Part shown: positions 743-31,506 of the stretch, piece by piece | How the letters are laid out: every line of letters starts with the position of its first letter | How positions within the stretch are numbered: position 1 is the stretch's first letter | Source of the DNA: Candidatus Methylomirabilota bacterium | GTDB taxonomy: Bacteria; Methylomirabilota; Methylomirabilia; Methylomirabilales; 2-02-FULL-66-22 | Length of the DNA: 32,138 bases | Reading direction: 5' to 3' | NCBI GenBank assembly: GCA_016209725.1 | Contig: JACQVO010000116.1 | Location: 1-32,138, forward strand | Position numbers and translations under genes: made by a program | Notes under the pieces: generated by a model | Databases searched by the model: none | What the model saw: only the letters and a program-made list of their open reading frames with translations | Told to the model about the DNA's origin: nothing

Positions 743-1069
743 GTGGCTGAAGTCAGGGCAGGCCTTCCTGAGAGCCTGGCCAAGGACGCGACCTTCCTGT
801 TCCCGGAGATGGACGTTGGCGAGCTTGATGTCCACGAGGACTGGAGGTACCTGCTTGGACGAGTGCTGGAATACGGCACCCTGGAGTCCGTGCGGTGGGC
901 GATGGACACCTACGGCCGGGAAAGAATCCGCGAGTTTATCCGAACGCGCGGGCTCCGGGTGCTGTCGAGAAAAACGGTGAACTACTGGGCGCTTCTGCTG
1001 GACCTCCACGACGAGGAATGCATCCAGAGATTCTTGACGGGCCCCAGAAATCCCTTCTGGCCCAACTAG
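743..1069 (+). CDS. Small helical protein, putative antitoxin/partner of the downstream AbiEii-type nucleotidyltransferase
   Basis: Same frame as track ORF 335..1069, but only the part after the hslV stop is plausible. GTG 743 is preceded by GAGGAG (729-734, 8-nt spacer); an alternative ATG is at 809. The product is 108 aa with balanced composition. WRYLLGRVLEYGTLESVRWAMDTYGRERIREFI...RKTVNYWALLL resembles, from memory, the DUF6922-type proteins usually found upstream of AbiEii-like genes. The 3' end overlaps the next CDS by 52 nt. Confidence 0.55.
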   Translation: MAEVRAGLPESLAKDATFLFPEMDVGELDVHEDWRYLLGRVLEYGTLESVRWAMDTYGRERIREFIRTRGLRVLSRKTVNYWALLLDLHDEECIQRFLTGPRNPFWPN

Positions 1070-1644
1070 AGCGCGGGGGGATTCCATCGGCCGTGTATTT
1101 GGCCGGGGGAACTGGCCTGGCTCTGCACCTCGGCCATCGGAGGTCCGTGGATCTCGACTTCTTCTCCTCGGAAGTATTCGAGGCCGAGGAATTGCTGACC
1201 GTTCTGCGACAGATTGGGGAGTTTCAGGTTCGTCGGAACGATCCGGGAACGCTGACGGCACGAGTCGAGGGGATTGAGGTGAGCTTCATTCGATACCTGT
1301 ATCCGATGCTCGATTCGCCGACCAAGCCGGAGTTTGCGCCGCCGATTGCTGGGCTCCGGGACATTGCGTGCATGAAGCTCTCGGCCATCATGGGTCGGGG
1401 GTCCAGACGCGATTTCGTGGACCTGTATGCGGTATGCCGGCAAGGGCACGGGCTGGGGGAAGTCTTCGGCTGGTTTCAGCAGAAGTACCATGGGATCACA
1501 TACGACCTGTACCACCTCGCCAGGAGCCTGGTCTATTTTCTGGATGCGGAAGAGGAGCGGATGCCGGTCATGCTCTGGCCCTGTCGCTGGGACGAGGTGA
1601 AGGCGTTCTTCACCGCCGAGTCCCGCCGCGTGTTCAGCGCCTAG
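1018..1644 (+). CDS. Nucleotidyltransferase, AbiEii/AbiGii toxin family (DUF1814-like), short form
   Basis: Internal ATG of track ORF 895..1644; the upstream part is R/G/P-rich shadow of the previous gene. The motif YLAGGTGLALHLGHRRSVDLDFFS is characteristic of AbiEii-type NTases. Product 208 aa. Confidence 0.8.
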   Translation: MHPEILDGPQKSLLAQLERGGIPSAVYLAGGTGLALHLGHRRSVDLDFFSSEVFEAEELLTVLRQIGEFQVRRNDPGTLTARVEGIEVSFIRYLYPMLDSPTKPEFAPPIAGLRDIACMKLSAIMGRGSRRDFVDLYAVCRQGHGLGEVFGWFQQKYHGITYDLYHLARSLVYFLDAEEERMPVMLWPCRWDEVKAFFTAESRRVFSA

Positions 1645-1701
1645 CTCCGTGGCCGGTTGTCGGTTGTCCGTTTTCCATTTTCAATTGAGGTGTAACCCGA
1701 C

Positions 1702-3045
1702 ATGGATCGTCTGACTCCCCGCCAGATCGTGGCGGAGCTCGATAAATACATCATCGGCCAGCACGACGCGAAGCGCGCCGTGGCCATCGCCCTCCGGAAT
1801 CGCTGGCGCCGGCAGAAGCTTCCCGCGGAGCTGCGGGACGAGGTCGCGCCGAAGAACATCATCATGATCGGCCCGACCGGTGTGGGCAAGACCGAGATCG
1901 CGCGCCGGCTGGCCCGGCTGGCCGAGGCCCCCTTCATCAAGGTGGAGGCCTCCAAGTACACCGAGGTCGGCTACGTGGGCCGGGACGTCGAGTCCATGAT
2001 CCGGGATCTGGTGGAGCTGGCGGTGAACATGGTCCGCGGCGAGAAGACCCGCCGGGTGGAGGAACGGGCGCGCGAGTTGGCGGAGGAACGCCTGCTGGAC
2101 CTTCTGCTGCCGTCGTCGCGGGTGGGGGCCTTCGGCCAGACGGTGGCGCCGGAGAGCGGCACCGCCCATGAGACCCGGGAGAAACTCCGGCAGCGGCTGC
2201 GGGAGGGCGCCCTGGATGACCGCACGGTGGAGGTGGATGTCGCCAATCGCGGCCTGCCCATGGTCGAGGTCCTCGGCGGGCAGGGCATGGAGGAGCTCCA
2301 GGAGAATCTTAAGGAGATGTTGGGGAACATCCTGCCCCAACGGACCAAGCGCCGCAAGGTGAAAATCAAGGAGGCGCACCGCATCCTGATGCAGGAGGAG
2401 GCGGACAAGCTGGTGGAGAAGGAGGAGGTGGTCAGCGAGGCCATTGCCCGCGTGGAGAATTCGGGGATCGTGTTCCTGGACGAGGTGGACAAGATCGCCG
2501 GACGCGAGCGGGCTCACGGCCCAGACGTGTCCCGGGAAGGGGTGCAGCGGGACCTGCTGCCCATCGTGGAGGGCTGCACGGTCAACACCAAGTACGGGCT
2601 GGTCCGGACGGACCACATTCTTTTCATCGCCGCCGGGGCCTTCCACGTCTCGAAGCCCTCGGACCTGATCCCGGAGATGCAGGGCCGGTTTCCCCTCCGG
2701 GTCGAACTCCCTAGCCTGACCCGCGAGGACTTCGAGCGCAACCTTACCGAGCCGGAGAAAGCCCTGACCAAGCAGTACACCGCCCTGCTGGCCACGGAAG
2801 GCGTGGGCCTGGAGTTCCTGCGAGACGCCATCCAGGAAATCGCCGCCATCGCCACCGCGGTCAACCAGGCCACCGAGAACATCGGTGCACGCCGCCTGTA
2901 TACCATCATGGAGCGGCTACTGGACGAGATCTCTTTCGAGGCCCCCCACATGGCAGGGGTCAAGGTGGCCATCGACGCCGAGCACGTGCGGCGGAAGCTG
3001 GCGAGCATCGTGAAGGACCAGGACCTCAGCCGCTACATCTTGTAG
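1702..3045 (+). CDS. hslU: ATP-dependent protease ATPase subunit HslU (ClpY)
   Basis: 447 aa. N-terminal [32 protein letters not shown], Walker [16 protein letters not shown], and C-terminal ...DLSRYIL. GAGGTG lies 10 nt upstream of the ATG. Confidence 0.95.
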
Positions 3046-6566: not shown

Positions 6567-7370
6567 GTGACGGTGCGACTGACGGATAAAGCGGCCATGG
6601 TGACGGGTGGAGGGGCCGGGATCGGCCGCGCCATTGTGCTGGCTATGGCGCGGGAGGGCGCCGACATCGTCATCGCCGACCTCCGGCGGGAGGCCGCCGA
6701 AGCCGTGGCCAGGGAGGCGCAGGACCTGGGCCGGAAGGCGGCGGCGATCCGGGTGGACGTCGCCCAGGAGACCCAGGTGCAGCAGGCCATCGCGGACGGC
6801 ATCCGGCAGTTCGGGCACATCGATATCCTGGTGAACAATGCCGGGGTGACCCCGGGACTGGGCCTGCCTTTCACGCGCCAGGAGGAAGCCGACTGGGATA
6901 CGGTGTTCGATATCAACGTGAAGTCAGTCTTCTTCGCGTGCAAGGCCATCGCCCCGCACTTCATGCAGCGGCGGTCCGGCAAGATCATCAACATCGCCTC
7001 CATTGCCGGGCCGCTGTCCAGCTTGACCATGCCGTCTTACAGCGTCTCCAAGATGGGGGTGATCACCTTCACCCGGATCGTGGCCAAAGAGCTGGCGGCG
7101 TCCAACGTCAACGTGAACGCCATCTGTCCGGGCCTCCTCTGGACGGACATGTGGAAGAACATCGGTGAGGTGATTCGGGAGACGAATCCGGCGTACCGGG
7201 ACCTCACCCCTCGGCAGATGTTCGAAAAGCGCGTGGAGGAGTGGATCCCCTTGAAGCGGGAGCAGACGCCGGAGGATATCGGGCACGCCGCCGTGTTCCT
7301 CGCCTCCGAGGAGGCGCGCAACATCACCGGCCAAGCCCTGATGGTGGACGGCGGGGTGGTGATGCAGTGA
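6567..7370 (+). CDS. Short-chain dehydrogenase/reductase (FabG-like oxidoreductase)
   Basis: GTG start, 267 aa. TGGGAGIGRA Rossmann motif, NNAG, and YSVSK (YxxxK). Confidence 0.85.
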   Translation: MTVRLTDKAAMVTGGGAGIGRAIVLAMAREGADIVIADLRREAAEAVAREAQDLGRKAAAIRVDVAQETQVQQAIADGIRQFGHIDILVNNAGVTPGLGLPFTRQEEADWDTVFDINVKSVFFACKAIAPHFMQRRSGKIINIASIAGPLSSLTMPSYSVSKMGVITFTRIVAKELAASNVNVNAICPGLLWTDMWKNIGEVIRETNPAYRDLTPRQMFEKRVEEWIPLKREQTPEDIGHAAVFLASEEARNITGQALMVDGGVVMQ

Positions 7371-7504: not shown

Positions 7505-7783
7505 ATGCCCCGCCTGCAGACTCCTGAGGGCGTCCGCATTGAAGTTCCGTTTGAGTCGCTTTCAGCGCAAGTTGCGAAGCTCCCTGTTGAGTCGCTTTCA
7601 GCGCTAGTTGCGAAGCTCCCTCAGGGGAAGAAGCTTCGCCTCTTCAAGGAGCTCATGGCTGAGCCTGCTATTGAGGATTGGGTGCTCGAAATGAATCCGC
7701 GTATCAGGAAAGAGATTCGTACTGCGCTGCGCGAAGAAGTGGAAGACTACCGGACATTTCGTCGGCGAGTCGTGGCAAGGTGA
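7505..7783 (+). CDS. Putative type II antitoxin (orphaned), 92 aa
   Basis: ATG is preceded by GAAGGAGGTGG. The stop overlaps the GTG of the RelE/ParE remnant (GTGA). The region is AT-richer than its surroundings. No confident family assignment. Confidence 0.5.
   Translation: MPRLQTPEGVRIEVPFESLSAQVAKLPVESLSALVAKLPQGKKLRLFKELMAEPAIEDWVLEMNPRIRKEIRTALREEVEDYRTFRRRVVAR
7551..7622 (+). repeat. 36-bp in-frame tandem duplication inside the antitoxin-like ORF
   Basis: ttgagtcgctttcagcgcaagttgcgaagctccctg (7551-7586) versus ttgagtcgctttcagcgctagttgcgaagctccctc (7587-7622), 2 mismatches. It encodes FESLSAQVAKLP/VESLSALVAKLP. Confidence 0.9.
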
Positions 7784-7951
7784 AACCATACCACGTTGAG
7801 GTCACGAAAGGGGGGCAGAAGCAGATATCGGAACTTTCTCCGAAGGACTTCCGGCGGATTGACCGATTATCGGATCATCTATCAAGTGAATGACGAGTCG
7901 GCAGTTGTGAAGGTGCTTCGGGTCATGCACAGGCGAGAGGTTTACCGGTAA
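7780..7951 (+). pseudogene. RelE/ParE-family toxin remnant (internal deletion plus frameshift)
   Basis: Frame 1 from GTG 7780 reads VKPYHVEVTKGGQKQISELSPKDFRRI, a typical RelE/ParE N-terminus. Frame 2 (7865-7951) reads [28 protein letters not shown], a typical C-terminus. The ~30 central residues are missing and the two parts are out of frame. Confidence 0.75.
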
Positions 7952-7992
7952 CGAATCTTCTCGAGGCCGCAGCCAGGGTGGGGGTTGGAGGA

Positions 7993-9207
7993 ATGGTGGG
8001 AAACATCAAGAAGATCGTGCTGGCGTACTCGGGCGGGCTGGACACGTCGGTCATCCTGCGGTGGCTGATCGAGACCTACCGGTGCGAGGTGGTGGCCTTC
8101 GTGGCCGACATCGGCCAGGGGGAAGAGGTCGGGCCGGTCCGGGAAAAGGCCCTGCGGACCGGGGCCAGCCAGTGCTACGTGGAGGACTTGCAGGACGAGT
8201 TCGTGCGGGACTTCGTCTTCCCCTGTCTCAAGGCGAACGCCCTGTACGAAGGGCGGTACCTCCTGGGGACCTCCATGGCCAGGCCCCTCATCGCCAAGGG
8301 GCAGATGGCCGTGGCGAAGAAAGAGCGCGCGGACGCCGTTTCCCACGGGGCCACCGGCAAGGGGAACGATCAAGTCCGATTCGAGTTGACCTATTACACC
8401 TTCGATCCCCATATCCAGATCATCGCCCCGTGGCGCGAGTGGAACTTCCGCTCGCGGACGGATCTGGTGGAGTACGCGAAGAAGCACGGGATCCCCACGC
8501 CGGTCACGGCGGAGCGTCCCTACAGCAGCGACCGGAATCTGTTCCACATCAGCTTCGAGGGGGGCATCCTGGAAGACCCCTGGGCCGAGCCCCCGGAGAA
8601 GATGTACGTCCTGTCGGTCTCGCCCGAACTGGCTCCCAACCGGGCGACCTGCGTGGAGATCGGTTTCGAGCGGGGGATCCCCGCGGCCGTGGATGGGGAG
8701 CGGATGGGCCCCGCCGCGCTACTGGCTCACCTCAACCGGCTGGGGGGCGAGAACGGGATCGGCCGGGTGGACATGGTAGAGAACCGCTATGTGGGGATGA
8801 AATCCCGCGGGGTGTACGAGACCCCGGGCGGCACCATCCTGCAGGCGGCGCACCGGGCGGTGGAGTCCATCACCATGGACCGCGAGGTGATGCATCTCAG
8901 GGATTCGCTCACCCCGCGCTTCGCGGAGCTGGTCTATTACGGGTACTGGTATTCGCCGGAGATGGAGCTGCTCCGGACGACCATCGACGAGTCCCAGAAG
9001 ATGGTGACGGGCACCGCCCGTCTCAAACTGTACAAGGGCAACTGCGACGTGGTGGGGCGCAAGTCCCCGGTGTCCCTCTACGACCCCGAGTTCGCGACCT
9101 TCGAGGCGGAGCAGGTGTACCAGCAATCGGACGCCACCGGGTTCATCCGGCTGAACGCCCTCCGCCTGCGAATCCGGGCCCTGACCCAGACGCGGCAGCA
9201 GGGTTGA
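7993..9207 (+). CDS. argG: Argininosuccinate synthase
   Basis: [15 protein letters not shown]-type ATP pyrophosphatase motif, with full-length similarity to ArgG. The track ORF starts at GTG 7978. ATG 7993 gives the usual N-terminal length, so the start is uncertain by 5 codons. Confidence 0.93.
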
Positions 9208-9230
9208 GGCAGGCGGGAGGCCCTCGCCAT

Positions 9231-10394
9231 ATGGTCGAGATCATCGAGAAGTTCATTCCCCTCCGCCTCCCCGCCGAGGAGCGGGTCTCGATGCTCCTCG
9301 CCCAGATCCCCAGCCGGCTTCGCTATCGGAACTATTTCTACCAGCTCGTGGATCCCCGGGGCCAGTGGGCTCTGGTGGAGCAGATCCTGCGGATGGTGGC
9401 TCGGGGAGAGGAGGGACTGAACGGGGCGACGTTTGTCGTCTTCCCCGAGGTCTCGGTCCCCTTCCAGTACAAGGACGACCTGGTGGAAATCATCCAGAAG
9501 GATTTCCCCCTCAACACGGTGACCATCGCCGGGTTCGAGCACATCACCCTGCGGCAGTTCTGGCAGCTCCTGGCCGAGTATGACGCCCACAACGTGGAGG
9601 CCCACCGGTTGATCTTGGACCGGATGAACCGGGCCGAGGCGGAGCGCCCGGTGAACTGGTGCCTGGTGGCGGTCAAGGATGATCACGGGGACCTCCGCTG
9701 CTTCGTGGAGGCGAAAACCCATCCCTTCTTCGGGGAGGAGTTCCTCGACCAGCCCCGCGACCTGTACCGGGGGCAGTACCTGTACCTGTTCCGCTCCCAG
9801 CCTGCCCCGCTGAGCTTCGTCGTGCTGATCTGCCTGGACTACATCTACCGGGACCGGCATGGCTCCAATATCCTCACCATCATCCGGAAGGCCAACGAGA
9901 TGTACTACCGGGAGCGGCAGCCCCTGGATCTGCTTTTCGTGATCCAGTGCAACCCCAAGCCGGAACACCAAGTCTTCCAGGATACCGCGGTGGGCTTCTA
10001 CGGGGAGCATTTGATCTTCACCCCCGGGGTGAAGCATGCCACCACGATCCTTCTGAACACCTCCTCGGAGACGCGGGTCGAAGGGGTGGCGGAGGACAGC
10101 GGCGGCTTCGGCCACAGCGCCGTCCTGGCCCACAAGAGCCGGCGGCTGCCCGCCACGGCGGTGGCGGAATATTCCACGGACCAGCCCGGCGGAGGCCCGG
10201 TGGCGCGCCTCCGCTTCGGTGCCGAGACGCGCCTGTATCACCTGGATGTCTCCCTGCTCCACGAGCGGGATCCCCGCACCTCGCGGAGCCCCGTCAAGAT
10301 CCTGAGCGTCCACGGTATGCGGGCGGGGCAGTGGCGCAAGCTGGAAGGGGAGGAGATCATCTCGGGGGTGAGTTCGCGGGAGGAGCTGGATTGA
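9231..10394 (+). CDS. Uncharacterised protein with a nitrilase-superfamily (carbon-nitrogen hydrolase) Glu-Lys-Cys pattern
   Basis: ATG 9231 (GGGAGG at 9215-9220) within track ORF 8061..10394; 387 aa with balanced composition. Three blocks occur in the order and spacing of the CN-hydrolase triad: ATFVVFPEVSVP (E73, codon 9447-9449), CFVEAKTHPFFGEE (K162, 9714-9716) and FVVLICLDYIY (C201, 9831-9833). The gene is tightly packed between argG (stop 9207) and argH (start 10411). Confidence 0.6.
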   Translation: MVEIIEKFIPLRLPAEERVSMLLAQIPSRLRYRNYFYQLVDPRGQWALVEQILRMVARGEEGLNGATFVVFPEVSVPFQYKDDLVEIIQKDFPLNTVTIAGFEHITLRQFWQLLAEYDAHNVEAHRLILDRMNRAEAERPVNWCLVAVKDDHGDLRCFVEAKTHPFFGEEFLDQPRDLYRGQYLYLFRSQPAPLSFVVLICLDYIYRDRHGSNILTIIRKANEMYYRERQPLDLLFVIQCNPKPEHQVFQDTAVGFYGEHLIFTPGVKHATTILLNTSSETRVEGVAEDSGGFGHSAVLAHKSRRLPATAVAEYSTDQPGGGPVARLRFGAETRLYHLDVSLLHERDPRTSRSPVKILSVHGMRAGQWRKLEGEEIISGVSSREELD

Positions 10395-10410: not shown

Positions 10411-11796
10411 ATGAAGCGCAAGAAGCCCTGGGGCGGCCGGTTCGGGGCCGAAACGCACGGGCAGGTCGAGGCCTTCACGGCCTCGATTCATTTCGATCTG
10501 CGGCTGGCCCCCCATGACATCACCGGCAGCATCGCCCACGCCCGCATGCTGGGCAAGTGCGGCATCCTCTCCAGGGCGGAGGTGGAGGCGATCGTGACCG
10601 GCCTGGGGGAGATCCGCGAGGAGATCGCGCGCGGGGAGTTCCGCACCGATCCGGCCCTGGAAGACATCCACATGCATATCGAGCGGCGCCTGACGGAGAA
10701 GATCGGGCAGGCCGGCGGCAAGCTCCACACCGGGCGGAGCCGGAACGACCAGGTGGCGCTGGATCTGCGGCTGTATTTGCGGGAGGCGATCGGGCAGATC
10801 CGCGACCGGATCCGCACTCTGCAGGCGGCCCTGGTGGCCAAAGCGGAGGTGCACCTGGGGACGGTCATGCCGGGGTATACCCACCTGCAGCGGGCCCAGC
10901 CGATCCTCCTGGCGCACCACCTGCTGGCCTACTTCGAGATGTTCCAGCGCGATCGCGAGCGGCTGGCGGACTGCCTGGCCCGGGTGAACGTGTTGCCGCT
11001 GGGCGCGGGGGCCCTGGCGGGAACGACGCTCCCCATCGACCGGGCCTACGCGGCCCGACTCCTGAACTTCCCCAAGATCGCCGCCAACAGCGAGGACGCG
11101 GTGGCCGACCGGGACTTCGCCGTGGAATTCCTGGCGTGCGGCGCCATCCTGGCCATGCACATCTCCCGGCTAGCGGAGGAGCTGGTCTTGTGGGCGACGG
11201 CCGAGTTCGGCTTCATCGAGCTGCCCGACGCCTTCGCCACCGGGTCCAGCATGATGCCGCAGAAGAAGAACCCCGACGTGGCGGAGCTGGCCCGGGGGAA
11301 GGCGGGACGGGTCTACGGCGCCCTGCTGGCCCTGCTCACGGTCCTCAAGGGCCTCCCGCTGAGTTACAACCGCGACCTCCAGGAGGACAAGGAGCCGGTG
11401 TTCGAGGCGGTGGACACGATCCAACAGACGCTGGATGTGCTCTCCCCCATGCTGGGGGCGATCAAGTTCCATACCGAGCGGATGCGATCCGCCGCGGCCG
11501 ACGGGTTCCTGAATGCCACGGATCTCGCCGAGTATCTGGTCACCAAGGGTGTCCCGTTCCGCGAGGCCCACGAGACGGTCGGTCGCATCGTGCGGGAATG
11601 TCTCGAATCCCGGCAGCGGCTGGAGGATGTCCCCCTGCCGCGGCTGCGTCACTTCTCGCGGGCCTTCGAGGCGGATGTCTTGAAATACATCAGGCTGGAG
11701 GCCTGCGTGGAGCGGCGGCGATCGGCGGGCGGCACCAACTCGCGGCTGGTGGGGGAGGCCATCCGCCGGGCCAAGCGCGCCCTCCGCCTCCCATGA
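10411..11796 (+). CDS. argH: Argininosuccinate lyase
   Basis: GRSRNDQV and the GSSMMPQKKNPD fumarate-lyase signature; 461 aa. Confidence 0.95.
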   Translation: MKRKKPWGGRFGAETHGQVEAFTASIHFDLRLAPHDITGSIAHARMLGKCGILSRAEVEAIVTGLGEIREEIARGEFRTDPALEDIHMHIERRLTEKIGQAGGKLHTGRSRNDQVALDLRLYLREAIGQIRDRIRTLQAALVAKAEVHLGTVMPGYTHLQRAQPILLAHHLLAYFEMFQRDRERLADCLARVNVLPLGAGALAGTTLPIDRAYAARLLNFPKIAANSEDAVADRDFAVEFLACGAILAMHISRLAEELVLWATAEFGFIELPDAFATGSSMMPQKKNPDVAELARGKAGRVYGALLALLTVLKGLPLSYNRDLQEDKEPVFEAVDTIQQTLDVLSPMLGAIKFHTERMRSAAADGFLNATDLAEYLVTKGVPFREAHETVGRIVRECLESRQRLEDVPLPRLRHFSRAFEADVLKYIRLEACVERRRSAGGTNSRLVGEAIRRAKRALRLP

Positions 11797-12887
11797 GCCG
11801 TCCCGTCCCCCCGTCCCGCCCGGCCCGTGCCCTCTTCCTCCTCCTGCCGCTTCTGCCGGTCGTGCTCCTGAGCTGCGGCCGGAAGGGCTCGCCCGTCGCG
11901 CCGCGCCCCCTGGCCCCGGCCGCGGTCGGCGCGCTCCGCGCTGAACCACGGGACAACGCCATCGTGGTGACCTGGAGCCGGCCCGGCCGAAACGTGGATG
12001 AATCGCCCCTCGTGGACCTCCTCGAGTTTCGGCTCTCCCGCGCCGTGGGGTCGGCCCTGCCCCAAGGGGCGCCGGAGCGGCCGGCCTTCTCGCTGCTGGC
12101 CACGGTCCGCGCAGAGCAACCCGACAACGCCGCCGTCCAGGGCAGCCAGTACGCCTTTCGGGATGACGGGGGCGCTCAAGGGCTGGCCCCGGGCCTTCGA
12201 TACGCCTATCGCGTGCGGGCGGTGAATCGTCGCGGGGCGGTGGGTCCGCCGTCGGTCGAGGTCTCCGTGGACTACGCCCTGGCGCCGCCGCCCCCGACCG
12301 GCCTGGTGGCCATGGCGGGGGACGGGGTGGTGAACCTGAGCTGGCAGGCGCCCGCGTCGCCTGATCGAGCCGGGGTCCCGCCCGTCCGGGGCTACAACGT
12401 GTACCGTGGTTCCCGACCCGGGCTCTACGCGCCCCAGCCGATCAATGCCGGGCCGGTTTTGGAGACGCGGTTCCGGGATGCCGCCGTGGAGAACGACCTG
12501 ACCTATTCCTATGTGGTGCGGAGCGTGGGAGCCGAGCCGCCTCCCTGGCGTGAGAGCCGCGACTCCACCGAGGCGTTGGCCACTCCTCTGGACCTGACCC
12601 CGCCGGCACCTCCCCGGAGGTTGGTGGCGGTTCCCGAGCCGGAGGTGGTGGCCTTGAGCTGGGACGCGAACACCGAGCCCGACCTCCTGGGTTATCTGGT
12701 CTACCGGCGGGAGCCGCCCGCCTTGACCCCCATCCGCCTCACCGAGACCCCGGTGCAGCCCACGACCTTCACCGACCGCGCGGCGCGGCCGGGCGCGACC
12801 TACATCTACACCGTCACGGCCGTGGACCGCTCCGGCCGCAGGAACGAGAGCGCCCCCTCTTCGGAGGTCACGGTCACCCTTCCCTAG
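11793..12887 (+). CDS. Lipoprotein with LptM-like N-terminal motif and three fibronectin-type-III-like modules
   Basis: The ATG overlaps the argH stop (ATGA). Signal peptide ALFLLLPLLPVVLLS-C (lipobox) is followed by CGRKGSPVAP. Three modules each have the ...L.W....(Y.VYR/F.LSR)...Y.Y.V.AV... pattern typical of FN3. Product 364 aa. Confidence 0.75.
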   Translation: MSRPVPPSRPARALFLLLPLLPVVLLSCGRKGSPVAPRPLAPAAVGALRAEPRDNAIVVTWSRPGRNVDESPLVDLLEFRLSRAVGSALPQGAPERPAFSLLATVRAEQPDNAAVQGSQYAFRDDGGAQGLAPGLRYAYRVRAVNRRGAVGPPSVEVSVDYALAPPPPTGLVAMAGDGVVNLSWQAPASPDRAGVPPVRGYNVYRGSRPGLYAPQPINAGPVLETRFRDAAVENDLTYSYVVRSVGAEPPPWRESRDSTEALATPLDLTPPAPPRRLVAVPEPEVVALSWDANTEPDLLGYLVYRREPPALTPIRLTETPVQPTTFTDRAARPGATYIYTVTAVDRSGRRNESAPSSEVTVTLP

Positions 12888-29225: not shown

Positions 29226-29346
29226 GAGGGGCGAGCAAACCAGGTGAGGCGTGTTGTAGAAATAGCGCACCCGGTGCAGAGCCAGGCGGGACCCGGAGAG
29301 GGAAACCTGCCCCAGGGATGAGGCGCGTGTGAAGGAGGGTGCGGTC

Positions 29347-31506
29347 ATGGCTGAGACAAGACCCGCTGAGCAACTGCAGAAAGGAATTCACGGGCCCGAG
29401 AAGGAGCGAGTGCAGTTCAAGCAACTCCTCGCCGAAAACCCGAACTACTTCGGGAATCTCGCCGACAGCCCGTACAAGGTGGTGAAGAAGATCATCGGCA
29501 ATCCGACCTATGAGGAGCTGACCTGCGTTGGGTACAACCCGGACCTGGCCCAACTCGAGGCCCCCTTTCAGGTCAAGCTGCCGACCGGGTACGGCGGCGA
29601 CCTCTGCCATGCGGGCTCGACAGAGTACGTTCGATTCTTCCTGGATTACGGCTCCGGGTGGGTTGACCAGGGCGTGGCGGCGGTGAACGTCCACGACATC
29701 CCCAACGCGCTCGACTGCGCCAAGCACCCGGACAAGCCGCTGACCTACGTCGTGTCCCTGAAGATCAAACCCCAGGCCGAAACCTGCGCACACCCGGTCC
29801 TGCCCCGCGTGCGCGCGATTCTCTCGTGGCAGACCATGCCTCCGGCCGGCAATGCGGCCTGGCCGCCGATCTGGGGCAACGTGCTTACCCGGCACATCCA
29901 GATCAAGCCGCACGTGAAAAATGTCGTGGCCCTGATCGACGTCCTTGCCGCCAAGATCAAGGACAAGATCCCCCTGCCGCCGGAGTACGAGGTGATCAAG
30001 TATCACCCGATCCCGCTTCCGGACCCGCCTCCATACCAACTGGCCGATCTGGTCAAGCTCTATTCAGGAGGACAAGCCGCCAAAGCCGCCAAGGTCAGCG
30101 TCGAGCCCCATCGCTTCGGGTTGGCCGACGTTCACGCCACGCTCAGCTCGGGCGCCCTGACCCAGGAGGCGTTGTCGGCCAAGGCCGAGGAATGGAAGGC
30201 GGTCGGCCTCGACTGGGCGGCCGTCGTGGCCGCCCTGAACAACGTGAAAGCCGACGTCTCGTACGAGGAGGTGGAATGCCTGGGGCTGGACAACAACCTG
30301 GAGTGGCTGGCGGCCACCTTCCGCATCAAGCGGCCCACCGGGTACTCGGGCGATCTGTGTCACAACGGCAGCCAGGAGTATATCGCCTTCTGGGCGGATT
30401 GGGACGACACCTGCGAGTGGACCTATCTCGGAACCACGTCCGTCAACGTCCACGACATCAGCAGCATCCCGGCGGATGGGCTTGCCTACACCGCCCTGTT
30501 CCCGGTGGATCTCACGTTCCACCGGCGTCCCTGCCAAAAGCCCAAGATCGGTCGGGTACGGGCCGTCCTCTCCTGGGCCGTTCCCCCGTCCACGACGGAC
30601 CCGAACGCGCTCACGACCTGGGGCAACCGCCTCGACGCCCACGTCCAGATCAAGCCGGGGCCGACGATCGCGGGACCGACCGCCATCATCGGCATCCTCG
30701 GGGGGATCCCGATCAGCAAGATCAATCCGTTCACGGGATTGACCACCTTCGACGCGTTCTTCGCCCTCAACGGGCTGGCCCCGGATGCGCTCGGCCGACC
30801 CTGCCCGTTCGCGGGACGCGTCGTCCTGCAGGGTCCCTCGTTCCCGGGCTATCGGTACAAGGTCGAAGTCCACAAGGTGGGCGATCCCGGGCCGTGGACA
30901 CCCGTCACGACGACGATGACGCTGGTGGACTGGACGGGGACGATCTTCACCACCCGGGCGGCCGATCCCGGAACGCACCTCTTCAGTTTCCAGCCGTTCT
31001 GGCTGAATGTGGACAACGTGCTGGCCTGGTGGGATACGACCGGGGACGACCTGTGGGAGATCCGCTTGCAGCTCTACGACCTGGCCACGCCGGCGAACCC
31101 GGTGGGACCGCCGGCCAGTCACCTGATTCAGTTGGAGAACAGCGGGATCGCCGACGTCCGCATCCACATCGCCACCGGGGGAGACTGCAAGATGTTCCCC
31201 AAGGCGACGACCTTGACCGGGGCCTTTGTCGCCCGCGACCCGTACCTCGGCTCCTACAGCCTGGGCACCAGCCCGTTCGCCGCGCCGGCGGGACATCTGG
31301 TTCCCACCGGCGGGACGGCGCAGACCGCGCCGGCGCCTATGCTGCCGACCGCGCCCCCGCCCGGCGGTAACGCCTGGTCCCTGGACACGAACGGCATGGC
31401 GCCCTGCGGCTACGTGCTGGTCGTGACCGCGGTTGACCGAGCGATCGTGCACAGCGCGGCCGTAGGGCATTGGGCCTCCGCGTCGGTCGGCTTCTGCATC
31501 CAGTAA
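29347..31506 (+). CDS. Orphan 719-aa protein with two tandem ~133-aa Cys-bearing modules and a ~280-aa C-terminal domain
   Basis: ATG 29347 with AAGGAGG 9 nt upstream. The composition is balanced, whereas the overlapping frames are R/G/P-rich. The internal duplication spans nt 29509-29910 versus nt 30262-30657. There is no signal peptide or TM segment, and I recognise no family. Confidence 0.8.
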   Translation: MAETRPAEQLQKGIHGPEKERVQFKQLLAENPNYFGNLADSPYKVVKKIIGNPTYEELTCVGYNPDLAQLEAPFQVKLPTGYGGDLCHAGSTEYVRFFLDYGSGWVDQGVAAVNVHDIPNALDCAKHPDKPLTYVVSLKIKPQAETCAHPVLPRVRAILSWQTMPPAGNAAWPPIWGNVLTRHIQIKPHVKNVVALIDVLAAKIKDKIPLPPEYEVIKYHPIPLPDPPPYQLADLVKLYSGGQAAKAAKVSVEPHRFGLADVHATLSSGALTQEALSAKAEEWKAVGLDWAAVVAALNNVKADVSYEEVECLGLDNNLEWLAATFRIKRPTGYSGDLCHNGSQEYIAFWADWDDTCEWTYLGTTSVNVHDISSIPADGLAYTALFPVDLTFHRRPCQKPKIGRVRAVLSWAVPPSTTDPNALTTWGNRLDAHVQIKPGPTIAGPTAIIGILGGIPISKINPFTGLTTFDAFFALNGLAPDALGRPCPFAGRVVLQGPSFPGYRYKVEVHKVGDPGPWTPVTTTMTLVDWTGTIFTTRAADPGTHLFSFQPFWLNVDNVLAWWDTTGDDLWEIRLQLYDLATPANPVGPPASHLIQLENSGIADVRIHIATGGDCKMFPKATTLTGAFVARDPYLGSYSLGTSPFAAPAGHLVPTGGTAQTAPAPMLPTAPPPGGNAWSLDTNGMAPCGYVLVVTAVDRAIVHSAAVGHWASASVGFCIQ

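Follow-up and report, generated by a model that had tools for sequence, protein, structure and literature searches.

We examined a 32,138-nucleotide stretch of DNA from an NC10 genome (Candidatus Methylomirabilota bacterium, assembly GCA_016209725.1, contig JACQVO010000116.1, positions 1 to 32,138 of the forward strand; this whole stretch is called the window here), and a gene in it, referred to as X, which lies between argG and argH, the genes of argininosuccinate synthase and argininosuccinate lyase. X belongs to a far-diverged branch of the nitrilase (C-N hydrolase) superfamily, a branch that has no curated family model; membership in the superfamily is well supported by the modelled fold and by the sequence motifs. 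Our reading of the gene as a whole, to which we give a probability of about 0.6, is that X encodes a cytoplasmic thiol amidase, with house-cleaning or salvage as a guess at its role. What is new is the nitrilase branch itself, uncurated and far diverged, together with the C-terminal module and the NUDIX partner that belong to it; the fold itself had been predicted in a preliminary description of the same DNA.

The fold was approached with an AlphaFold2 model of X, built on 21 orthologues that reach down to 41% identity (mean predicted local distance difference test, pLDDT, of 78; predicted template modelling score, pTM, of 0.86), and a Foldseek search of PDB with that model. The top 11 matches all belong to the nitrilase superfamily, as the preliminary description had proposed, with E-values from 6e-8 to 1e-2, and the next match, which is unrelated, has E=0.18. 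The first eight have probability 1.00 and E-values between 6e-8 and 3.5e-5, and the three structures of Lnt have probabilities of 0.75-0.97. Among the matches are the formamidases AmiF of B. cereus and H. pylori (5g3o and 2e2k), the aliphatic amidase 4kzf of Geobacillus pallidus and vanin-1 (4cyy). The best structural matches are solved amidases, namely AmiF, 4kzf and the D-carbamoylase N-carbamoyl-D-amino-acid amidohydrolase (1fo6 and 1erz), all at probability 1.00 and E-values from 6e-8 to 8e-7. Their identity to X is 10-12%, and they have the same order and spacing of Glu, Lys, second Glu (7-8 residues after the Lys) and Cys; X differs from them by one more strand at the N-terminus, an insertion of helical structure around residues 107-131, and the C-terminal module.

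Conservation of the predicted active site was followed in the 21 orthologues and in 102 relatives, which are representatives of clusters at 50% identity and stand for the wider domain family:

9447..9449, + strand: codon of E73, predicted catalytic Glu in FVVFPE; 21/21 orthologues, 102/102 relatives
9714..9716, + strand: codon of K162, predicted catalytic Lys in EAKTHPF; 21/21 orthologues, 102/102 relatives
9735..9737, + strand: codon of E169, predicted second catalytic Glu; 21/21 orthologues, 95/102 relatives
9831..9833, + strand: codon of C201, predicted nucleophile in LICLD; 21/21 orthologues, 101/102 relatives

The motifs FVVFPE (E73), EAKTHPFFGEE (K162) and VVLICLDY (C201) are located where the preliminary description had placed them, and the triad that it had picked out is conserved, as the counts above show. 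E169 sits seven residues past K162, and in the nitrilase superfamily the second catalytic Glu is found at that distance after the Lys. The adjacent E170 is kept in just 31 of the 102 relatives, and D203 in 101. In the model, E73 ends the strand 68-76, K162 comes after the strand 155-161, E169 is in a loop, and C201 occupies the strand-turn-helix "elbow" between the strand 194-199 and the helix 203-206. E73, K162, E169 and C201 are thus predicted to make up a conserved catalytic tetrad, in the canonical order and on the canonical secondary structure elements.

Searches of Pfam and NCBIfam give no match to X even at E<=10, and searches of PDB by sequence or profile, with X or with the alignment of the 21 orthologues (A1), likewise give none. 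A broader profile (A2), compared to PDB, produces only sub-threshold matches (E 0.29-0.73), eight of ten to the nitrilase superfamily; these alignments all place FxVFPE on the catalytic-Glu motif, and E73, counted from a sub-threshold alignment, falls on Glu47 of N-carbamoyl-D-amino-acid amidohydrolase. What assigns X to the superfamily is therefore its fold, its motifs and a set of transitive profile links, the last being matches to the RT_UG5-nitrilase defence model, weak for X (E=0.026) and at about 1e-6 for the relatives P0145, P0164 and P0216. Current hidden Markov model (HMM) libraries miss this whole branch of the superfamily, and fold search and motif conservation recover it.

The protein consists of two parts:

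9282..10142, + strand: catalytic domain, approximately residues 18-304 (PADLOC LmuA profile PDLC03850, AlphaFold2 model, Foldseek)
10143..10391, + strand: C-terminal module, residues 305-387, rich in beta structure (alignment A1; the match to the LmuA profile stops at about 304)

Both extensions are shorter than the preliminary description had them. At the N-terminus, where it claimed about 60 residues, the alignment with D-carbamoylase and the model leave about 20-25: residue ~37 of X aligns with D-carbamoylase residue 13, and LLAQIP at residues 21-27 is the usual first strand. At the C-terminus, the claimed 130 or so residues reduce to a family-specific module of about 85. This module is Arg-rich, with R326, R328, F329, R334, D347, R349, R352 and W368 invariant, and occurs only in the stand-alone family and in a small number of multidomain relatives; LmuA does not have it. 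In the profile search described below, X is covered to residue ~370-380 only by the clusters P0121-P0124, P0132, P0142, P0151 and P0152.

The gene and its immediate surroundings are as follows:

9231..10394, + strand: gene X, 387 amino acids plus stop (ORF, translation, native GC at third codon positions, GC3, of 0.894, dN/dS)
9215..9220, + strand: GGGAGG, the Shine-Dalgarno ribosome-binding site of X, as read from the sequence itself, 10 nt ahead of the ATG
7978..9207, + strand: argG, argininosuccinate synthase (PF00764 and PF20979, E 5e-65 and 9e-83); its actual start codon is possibly the ATG at 7993
9208..9230, + strand: argG-X spacer of 23 nt, the site of a ~147-aa MutT-like NUDIX gene in relatives
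10411..11796, + strand: argH, argininosuccinate lyase (PF00206, PF14698)

The open reading frame (ORF) has the position and length given in the preliminary description and is set off by the same two gaps, 23 nt from the argG stop codon (9205-9207) and 16 nt to the argH ATG at 10411. It codes for a protein of 44.5 kDa and pI 6.1. Orthologues keep the N-terminus MV(E/Q)IIEK, which confirms the start codon, and GC at the three codon positions (0.665/0.384/0.894) follows the same pattern as in argG and argH, so that X is a real and native coding gene. The ratio of non-synonymous to synonymous substitution rates (dN/dS) between close NC10 orthologues, with dS unsaturated, is 0.11-0.29 for X, 0.12-0.23 for argH and 0.10-0.16 for argG; X is under purifying selection at a level like that of argH. 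There are 70 invariant columns across the 21 orthologues, with the whole predicted tetrad among them, and X is found at full length (~385-390 aa) in 268 species-level genomes. The maximum Kyte-Doolittle hydropathy (KD19) is 1.46, with no transmembrane or hydrophobic segment, and the protein is predicted to be soluble. Neither the argG-X nor the X-argH gap has a promoter- or terminator-like site, and for this reason co-transcription of X with argG and argH, which the preliminary description had called almost certain, is plausible and in our view very probable.

A 777-aa ORF at 8061-10394 (+), in the same frame as X, is spurious: it is an out-of-frame read-through of argG, made by the X frame staying open backwards across that gene, which is common in GC-rich DNA. 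Public protein sets carry the same artefact in the form of "fusions", such as the 456-aa read-through P0127 and P0184, a frameshifted call that joins NUDIX and X.

X has one strong match in the searched libraries, to the PADLOC LmuA profile PDLC03850 (E=3.8e-32), in which X residues 10-304 align with positions 13-306 of the 604-position profile, i.e., with its first half only. A profile search of 1.84 billion representative sequences returned 386 clusters at 50% identity. Four of these hold full-length stand-alone proteins of ~390 aa and make up the X family; a large set of proteins of ~590-620 aa has just the first ~300 residues in common with X, and the rest are 700-1300 aa long. The ~600-aa relatives P0170 and P0179 match the whole LmuA model (positions 7-603) at 1e-145 and 1e-170. 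Genes of this LmuA type in two contigs (L089, 7001-12425, and L090, 7001-12458) are followed by an overlapping gene for a ~1200-aa SMC_N/AAA_23 protein, and an IS110 transposase is found near the operon in one of the two; these are genuine two-gene operons of long-type Lamassu, with a nitrilase-like N-terminal LmuA effector. In the long relatives of 700-1300 aa, the domain is fused to NACHT with HEAT repeats, to NB-ARC with TPR, to nSTAND, or to TPR alone. The catalytic domain of X is, on these profile alignments, homologous to the N-terminal effector domain of the long-Lamassu LmuA subtype and, by the same kind of comparison, also to the N-terminal domains of the NACHT, NB-ARC and TPR proteins; X has none of the sensor and adaptor parts of these proteins. 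All detectable sequence relatives outside the X orthologues are conflict-system or immune effector proteins or occur in accessory contexts; the nearest non-orthologous one with the C-terminal module of X is an archaeal protein of 699 aa, encoded amid small toxin-antitoxin-like ORFs. A rough neighbour-joining tree separates the X clade from the LmuA clade and places X among the STAND, TPR and archaeal forms; this tree is star-like and unrooted, and the intended outgroup is not monophyletic in it.

We found no paper that describes this type of LmuA effector as a nitrilase-type domain; the subtype may correspond to the one called "Amidase" in DefenseFinder. Literature searches on the Geobacter X locus and on argG or argH with Nudix also found nothing relevant. 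A plasmid collection contained no match to either X or an LmuA-type relative, and a viral structure library had no relative of X.

By sequence, LmuA is the closest named relative of X, with ~295 homologous residues and the same conserved signature in both groups (PE, (Q/E)xK..P..E, LIC.D, N). LmuA, however, continues into a C-terminal domain of ~300 aa (profile positions ~307-604), which couples it to LmuB and LmuC and which X lacks, having an unrelated module instead. The SMC-type lmuB adjoins the LmuA-type gene in L089 and L090, and nothing of the kind is found beside X: there are no SMC, LmuC or STAND genes among the genes of the window, and no SMC_N gene next to X in the examined loci of its relatives. 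A member of Lamassu would be expected in a variable, island-like or mobile context, whereas X occurs in conserved housekeeping synteny and has native composition. Of four features that would mark a member of Lamassu, X thus shows the N-terminal effector homology and lacks the other three. We considered X as an orphan Lamassu system and rejected this for want of both the LmuA C-terminal domain and LmuB; X must not be filed as a defence gene.

The nitrilases of DRT1/UG1, UG5-nitrilase, RT-associated nitrilase and CARF-nitrilase systems are of the same superfamily and serve as immune effectors. They form a different, more canonical branch and, unlike X, have a reverse transcriptase or a CARF sensor as fused domain or as partner; the activity of DRT1 is controlled by DNA-adduct-driven filaments, again unlike X. 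What the nitrilase effector in DRT1 acts on is unknown, and its authors suggest "ATP, GTP, NAD+" (PMC13275509).

A scan of genomes, one per species, recovered 268 loci of X, and gene order was compared in the best 80 of the 268, each within 20 kb. These 80 come from Methylomirabilota, Geobacterales/Desulfuromonadales, a few genomes labelled Holophagaceae/Geothrix, and an uncultured lineage of ~30% GC. In most of them the order is argB-argD-argF-argG-NUDIX-X-argH-FN3 lipoprotein-(lysA)-dapA; the place of X at the junction of argG and argH, which the preliminary description wanted compared in relatives, is conserved and is kept in other phyla. Identity between the window and Geobacterales orthologues is 68% for ArgG, 57% for ArgH, ~55% for ArgD, ~49% for ArgF and 45% for X, and since these values run in parallel, the divergence of X keeps pace with that of the block and is about as fast as that of ArgF. 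The family splits into three deep clades, that of NC10, that of Geobacterales and that of the low-GC lineage, which are 38-51% identical to one another, and GC content of X matches that of its host locus in every case, over a range of 0.25-0.65. A recent horizontal insertion of X, which we considered, is ruled out by composition, synteny and parallel divergence. The copies in Holophagaceae are 74% identical to Geobacter X, which suggests transfer or mis-binning.

At least seven of the 80 loci have no arg gene within 6 kb of X (L011, L012, L014, L015, L055, L064 and L070). The neighbours of X away from arg genes are those for Usp, BCAM0308-family protein, birA, nrfA, ackA, TANGO2 and MFS; in Holophagaceae X is beside ackA and a gene for E1 dehydrogenase or MCP, and in L070 beside TANGO2. 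In one NC10 subclade X comes directly after a gene for a universal stress protein or a BCAM0308-family protein (NCBIfam NF040826, with the name prefix "lxa"): L086 6463-8164, L087 5917-8161, L014 5412-7161, L012 5243-7161 and L015 5235-7167. This adjacency hints at stress or low-oxygen co-regulation of X.

The partner that stands closest to X in these loci is a NUDIX gene of ~147 aa, which is located between argG and X in Geobacterales as well as in other NC10 and the low-GC lineage; argG-NUDIX-X-argH is, judged from gene order, the probable ancestral arrangement in all three. In Geobacter sulfurreducens, X is probably GSU0155, located between the NUDIX gene and argH. The NUDIX protein is MutT/NudG/NudI-like, with all matches below the curated cut-offs. 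The distance from the NUDIX stop codon to the X start has a median of 6 nt and is at most 30 nt in 41 of 61 loci, with 16 overlaps of 8 or 17 nt; the corresponding medians are 77 nt between X and argH and 61 nt between argG and NUDIX. In L066 the pair is found with no arg genes, and in L018 and L043, where lspA-lgt follows, with argG and no argH. Given the short gaps and overlaps, and the occurrence of the pair away from arg genes, NUDIX-X has the look of a module that is coupled in translation and has settled inside the arg block. A search for natural fusions of X with NUDIX, ArgG or Usp turned up only artefacts of gene calling. In the clade of the window (L006-L010 and L016) there is no NUDIX gene, and the argG-X gap is 23-151 nt; a tblastn search for NUDIX across the window also found none (best E=0.4). 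A short-chain dehydrogenase (SDR) gene, at 6567-7370 (+) between argF and argG in the window, is kept at that site in this NC10 clade (L006, L008-L010) and absent from the Geobacterales loci; the clade with the SDR insertion is the one that lost the NUDIX gene.

In the ~30% GC lineage, the order argG-NUDIX-X-lspA-lgt (L018 4391-8435; L043 3869-7883), with argH elsewhere in the genome, puts X directly before two genes of lipoprotein maturation, whose third enzyme, Lnt, is a nitrilase-superfamily protein. An Lnt-like role, which this adjacency and the fold matches to Lnt brought up, is ruled out, as X has neither a membrane segment nor a signal peptide.

There is a parallel to the NUDIX-X pair in the Nit-Fhit "Rosetta stone", the fusion of the nitrilase-superfamily protein Nit to the nucleotide-hydrolysing Fhit in flies and worms. 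In both cases an amidase of the nitrilase superfamily would be coupled to a small nucleotide pyrophosphohydrolase, and we offer this as an analogy; Nit-Fhit has a HIT partner, a fusion and another Nit branch, and X has a NUDIX partner in an operon.

If X works as the chemistry of its superfamily would have it, Cys201 would attack an amide or carbamoyl group at its carbonyl carbon and expel ammonia or an amine, and the thioester would then be hydrolysed, with Lys162 and the two Glu assisting. The many invariant Arg and His residues of X suggest a small anionic molecule as substrate; our guess at its class is a small anionic metabolite with an amide, which might be linked to a nucleotide or arise as a by-product when carbamoyl compounds or arginine are metabolised. 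Gene order points to an original state in which X came second, after a MutT-like NUDIX gene, in a translationally coupled pair between argG and argH; the clade of the window would have lost the NUDIX gene, leaving X probably co-transcribed with argG and argH. That X is a house-cleaning or salvage amidase that originally worked together with this NUDIX is a guess, and a tentative one, to which we give somewhat less than even odds. Our best guess is also that X is neither a replacement for ArgE nor a working defence system. A broader proposal, in which NUDIX-X would be an ancient two-enzyme module acting on a nucleotide-linked or other essential amide metabolite, and the Lamassu LmuA and STAND/TPR effectors its weaponised, sensor-gated versions, seems to us doubtful.

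Several observations weigh against the reading of X as a house-cleaning or salvage amidase. The Pfam CN_hydrolase HMM (PF00795), the profile by which the preliminary description expected its proposal to be checked, does not detect X, and matches just 2 of 23 diverse relatives, at E>=0.081. TM-scores of the model against solved nitrilases are moderate, 0.37-0.56; such modest values fit a far-diverged member of the superfamily with insertions. The active-site loops, residues 160-180 and 204-210, are modelled at low confidence (pLDDT 46-67). The NUDIX gene is missing not only from the clade of the window but also from the Holophagaceae copies. Adjacency to argG recurs in all three of the deep clades, with argG-NUDIX-X-lspA-lgt as its low-GC form, and could reflect a real link to argininosuccinate synthesis. 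Finally, the synteny common to NC10 and Geobacterales may come from a single block, shared or transferred, and not from independent retention.

In one alternative, X would belong to the arginine pathway as an enzyme for one of its intermediates or side products, for example by deacylating N-acetylornithine or N-acetylcitrulline, decarbamoylating amino acids that carbamoyl-phosphate chemistry has mis-carbamoylated, or opening the cyclic anhydrides of argininosuccinate that form after the ArgG step and before that of ArgH. The preliminary description had leaned this way, proposing as targets ornithine, citrulline or arginine in acylated or carbamoylated form, or else a stand-in for ArgE, and we find it unsupported. 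It is true that most of the 80 loci, in Geobacterales and NC10 alike, have X between argG and argH, that the ~30% GC lineage keeps argG-NUDIX-X even with argH elsewhere, that the gaps in the window are tight and without a terminator, and that many enzymes of the superfamily are carbamoyl- or acyl-amidases, the weak PDB matches to N-carbamoyl-amino-acid amidohydrolases being of this kind. However, X stands alone or beside Usp, BCAM0308-family, ackA, TANGO2 or MFS genes in the seven or more loci that lack arg genes, and the block also holds unrelated genes, namely that of the FN3 lipoprotein, lysA, dapA and dapB. The tightest conserved coupling of X is to the MutT-like NUDIX, the other detectable relatives, Lamassu LmuA and the STAND/TPR proteins, are all immune effectors, unlikely to target arginine intermediates, and the cleavage of citrulline or argininosuccinate by an enzyme co-expressed with their biosynthesis would be futile. 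We hold this alternative to be unlikely.

Since the relatives outside the orthologous group are all conflict-system proteins or come from accessory contexts, X might instead be a domesticated or latent toxic effector for stress-triggered arrest or dormancy, restrained by NUDIX, by Usp, or by its own C-terminal lid. The site of the DRT1 nitrilase is gated, or autoinhibited, by a C-terminal lid from the neighbouring protomer (PMC13275509), and X has a conserved extra C-terminal module; the position of X after universal-stress or BCAM0308-family genes in one NC10 subclade would also suit such a role. Against it stand the long vertical residence of X in three deep clades, with native GC and with selection like that on a biosynthetic gene, the lack of any sensor, antitoxin or mobile element next to it, and the retention of X in the clade of the window after the NUDIX was lost; moreover, co-transcription with essential biosynthetic genes would express the toxin constitutively. 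We regard a latent effector as improbable.

Least probable among the enzymatic roles, and in our view very improbable, is that of an ammonia-delivering partner of ArgG, whereby X and ArgG together could amidate citrullyl-AMP directly. The idea is by analogy to the glutamine-dependent NAD synthetase (NadE), in which a nitrilase-superfamily glutaminase feeds NH3 to an ATP-pyrophosphatase domain of the N-type, the class to which ArgG belongs. The argG gene is indeed directly upstream of X, or one gene away, in the three deep clades, and in other NC10 loci X follows Usp, which is of the same HUP/adenine-nucleotide alpha-hydrolase fold class as ArgG. Yet argH is kept next door, which leaves the normal route intact, NUDIX usually separates argG from X and is spaced more loosely from argG than from X, and in several lineages X is far from argG, and the only fusions of X to ArgG, Usp or NUDIX that came up are artefacts. 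As to X being a decaying or non-catalytic passenger ORF, for which the lack of sequence matches to any curated family or solved structure might speak, it is effectively refuted by the dN/dS values, by the invariant columns that include the tetrad, by the full-length occurrence in 268 genomes, and by the confident fold of the model.

The window, in a host genome of ~66% GC, is a housekeeping block, and its proteins have their best matches, at 77-98% identity, in proteins named Methylomirabilis or NC10. The genes run hslV, AbiEii, hslU, argB, argD, argF, SDR, two low-GC ORFs, argG, X and argH, then FN3 lipoprotein, a trypsin-like protease, a sigma-54 two-component pair, lysA, dapA, dapB and an aminotransferase, and at the end folB, a deoxynucleoside kinase, panB, panC and panD; Rfam has no match in the window. 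The FN3-domain lipoprotein gene always follows argH in both NC10 and Geobacterales (window 11799-12887 (+); L001 10581-11342; L004 4631-5653), shows faint LptM_cons matches in Geobacter, and is a second conserved non-arginine passenger of the block. A pair of nucleotidyltransferase and HEPN genes (PF01909 and PF05168, of toxin-antitoxin type) comes right after it in an NC10 contig (L088 6642-7338), and is another small mobile module in the conserved block. In the window itself, a gene for an AbiEii-type nucleotidyltransferase toxin (PF08843, E=4.9e-13) at 829-1641 (+) lies between hslV (87-740) and hslU (1696-3045), and its GC3 of 0.67, against ~0.9 in the neighbours, makes it look foreign. 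Two small ORFs of 92 and 71 aa, at 7505-7783 and 7678-7893 (+) between the SDR gene and argG, sit in a low-GC patch (GC 0.53-0.56, GC3 0.58) and have no Pfam or NCBIfam match; they may be a foreign toxin-antitoxin-like pair. A 746-aa ORF at 29266-31506 (+) carries, with a GC3 of 0.87, the codon signature of genuine genes and has no sequence match in Pfam, NCBIfam or PDB.

X is conserved and, as far as its residues and model indicate, apparently enzymatically intact, inside one of the best-studied biosynthetic operons, and it is found both in NC10 methane oxidisers and in Geobacterales, among which there are cultured and genetically tractable species. In X, an immune effector domain has its chromosomal counterpart of housekeeping type. 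Effectors of the nitrilase type are found in Lamassu, STAND, DRT and CARF systems, that of DRT1 being the best studied, and the stand-alone, presumably non-lethal X with its NUDIX partner is an entry point to their substrate. If NUDIX-X is indeed an ancient module, it would add an unrecognised enzyme to central metabolism beside argininosuccinate synthesis; and if the effectors are its weaponised forms, the culturable Geobacter homologue would give a direct experimental route to the target of nitrilase-type effectors.

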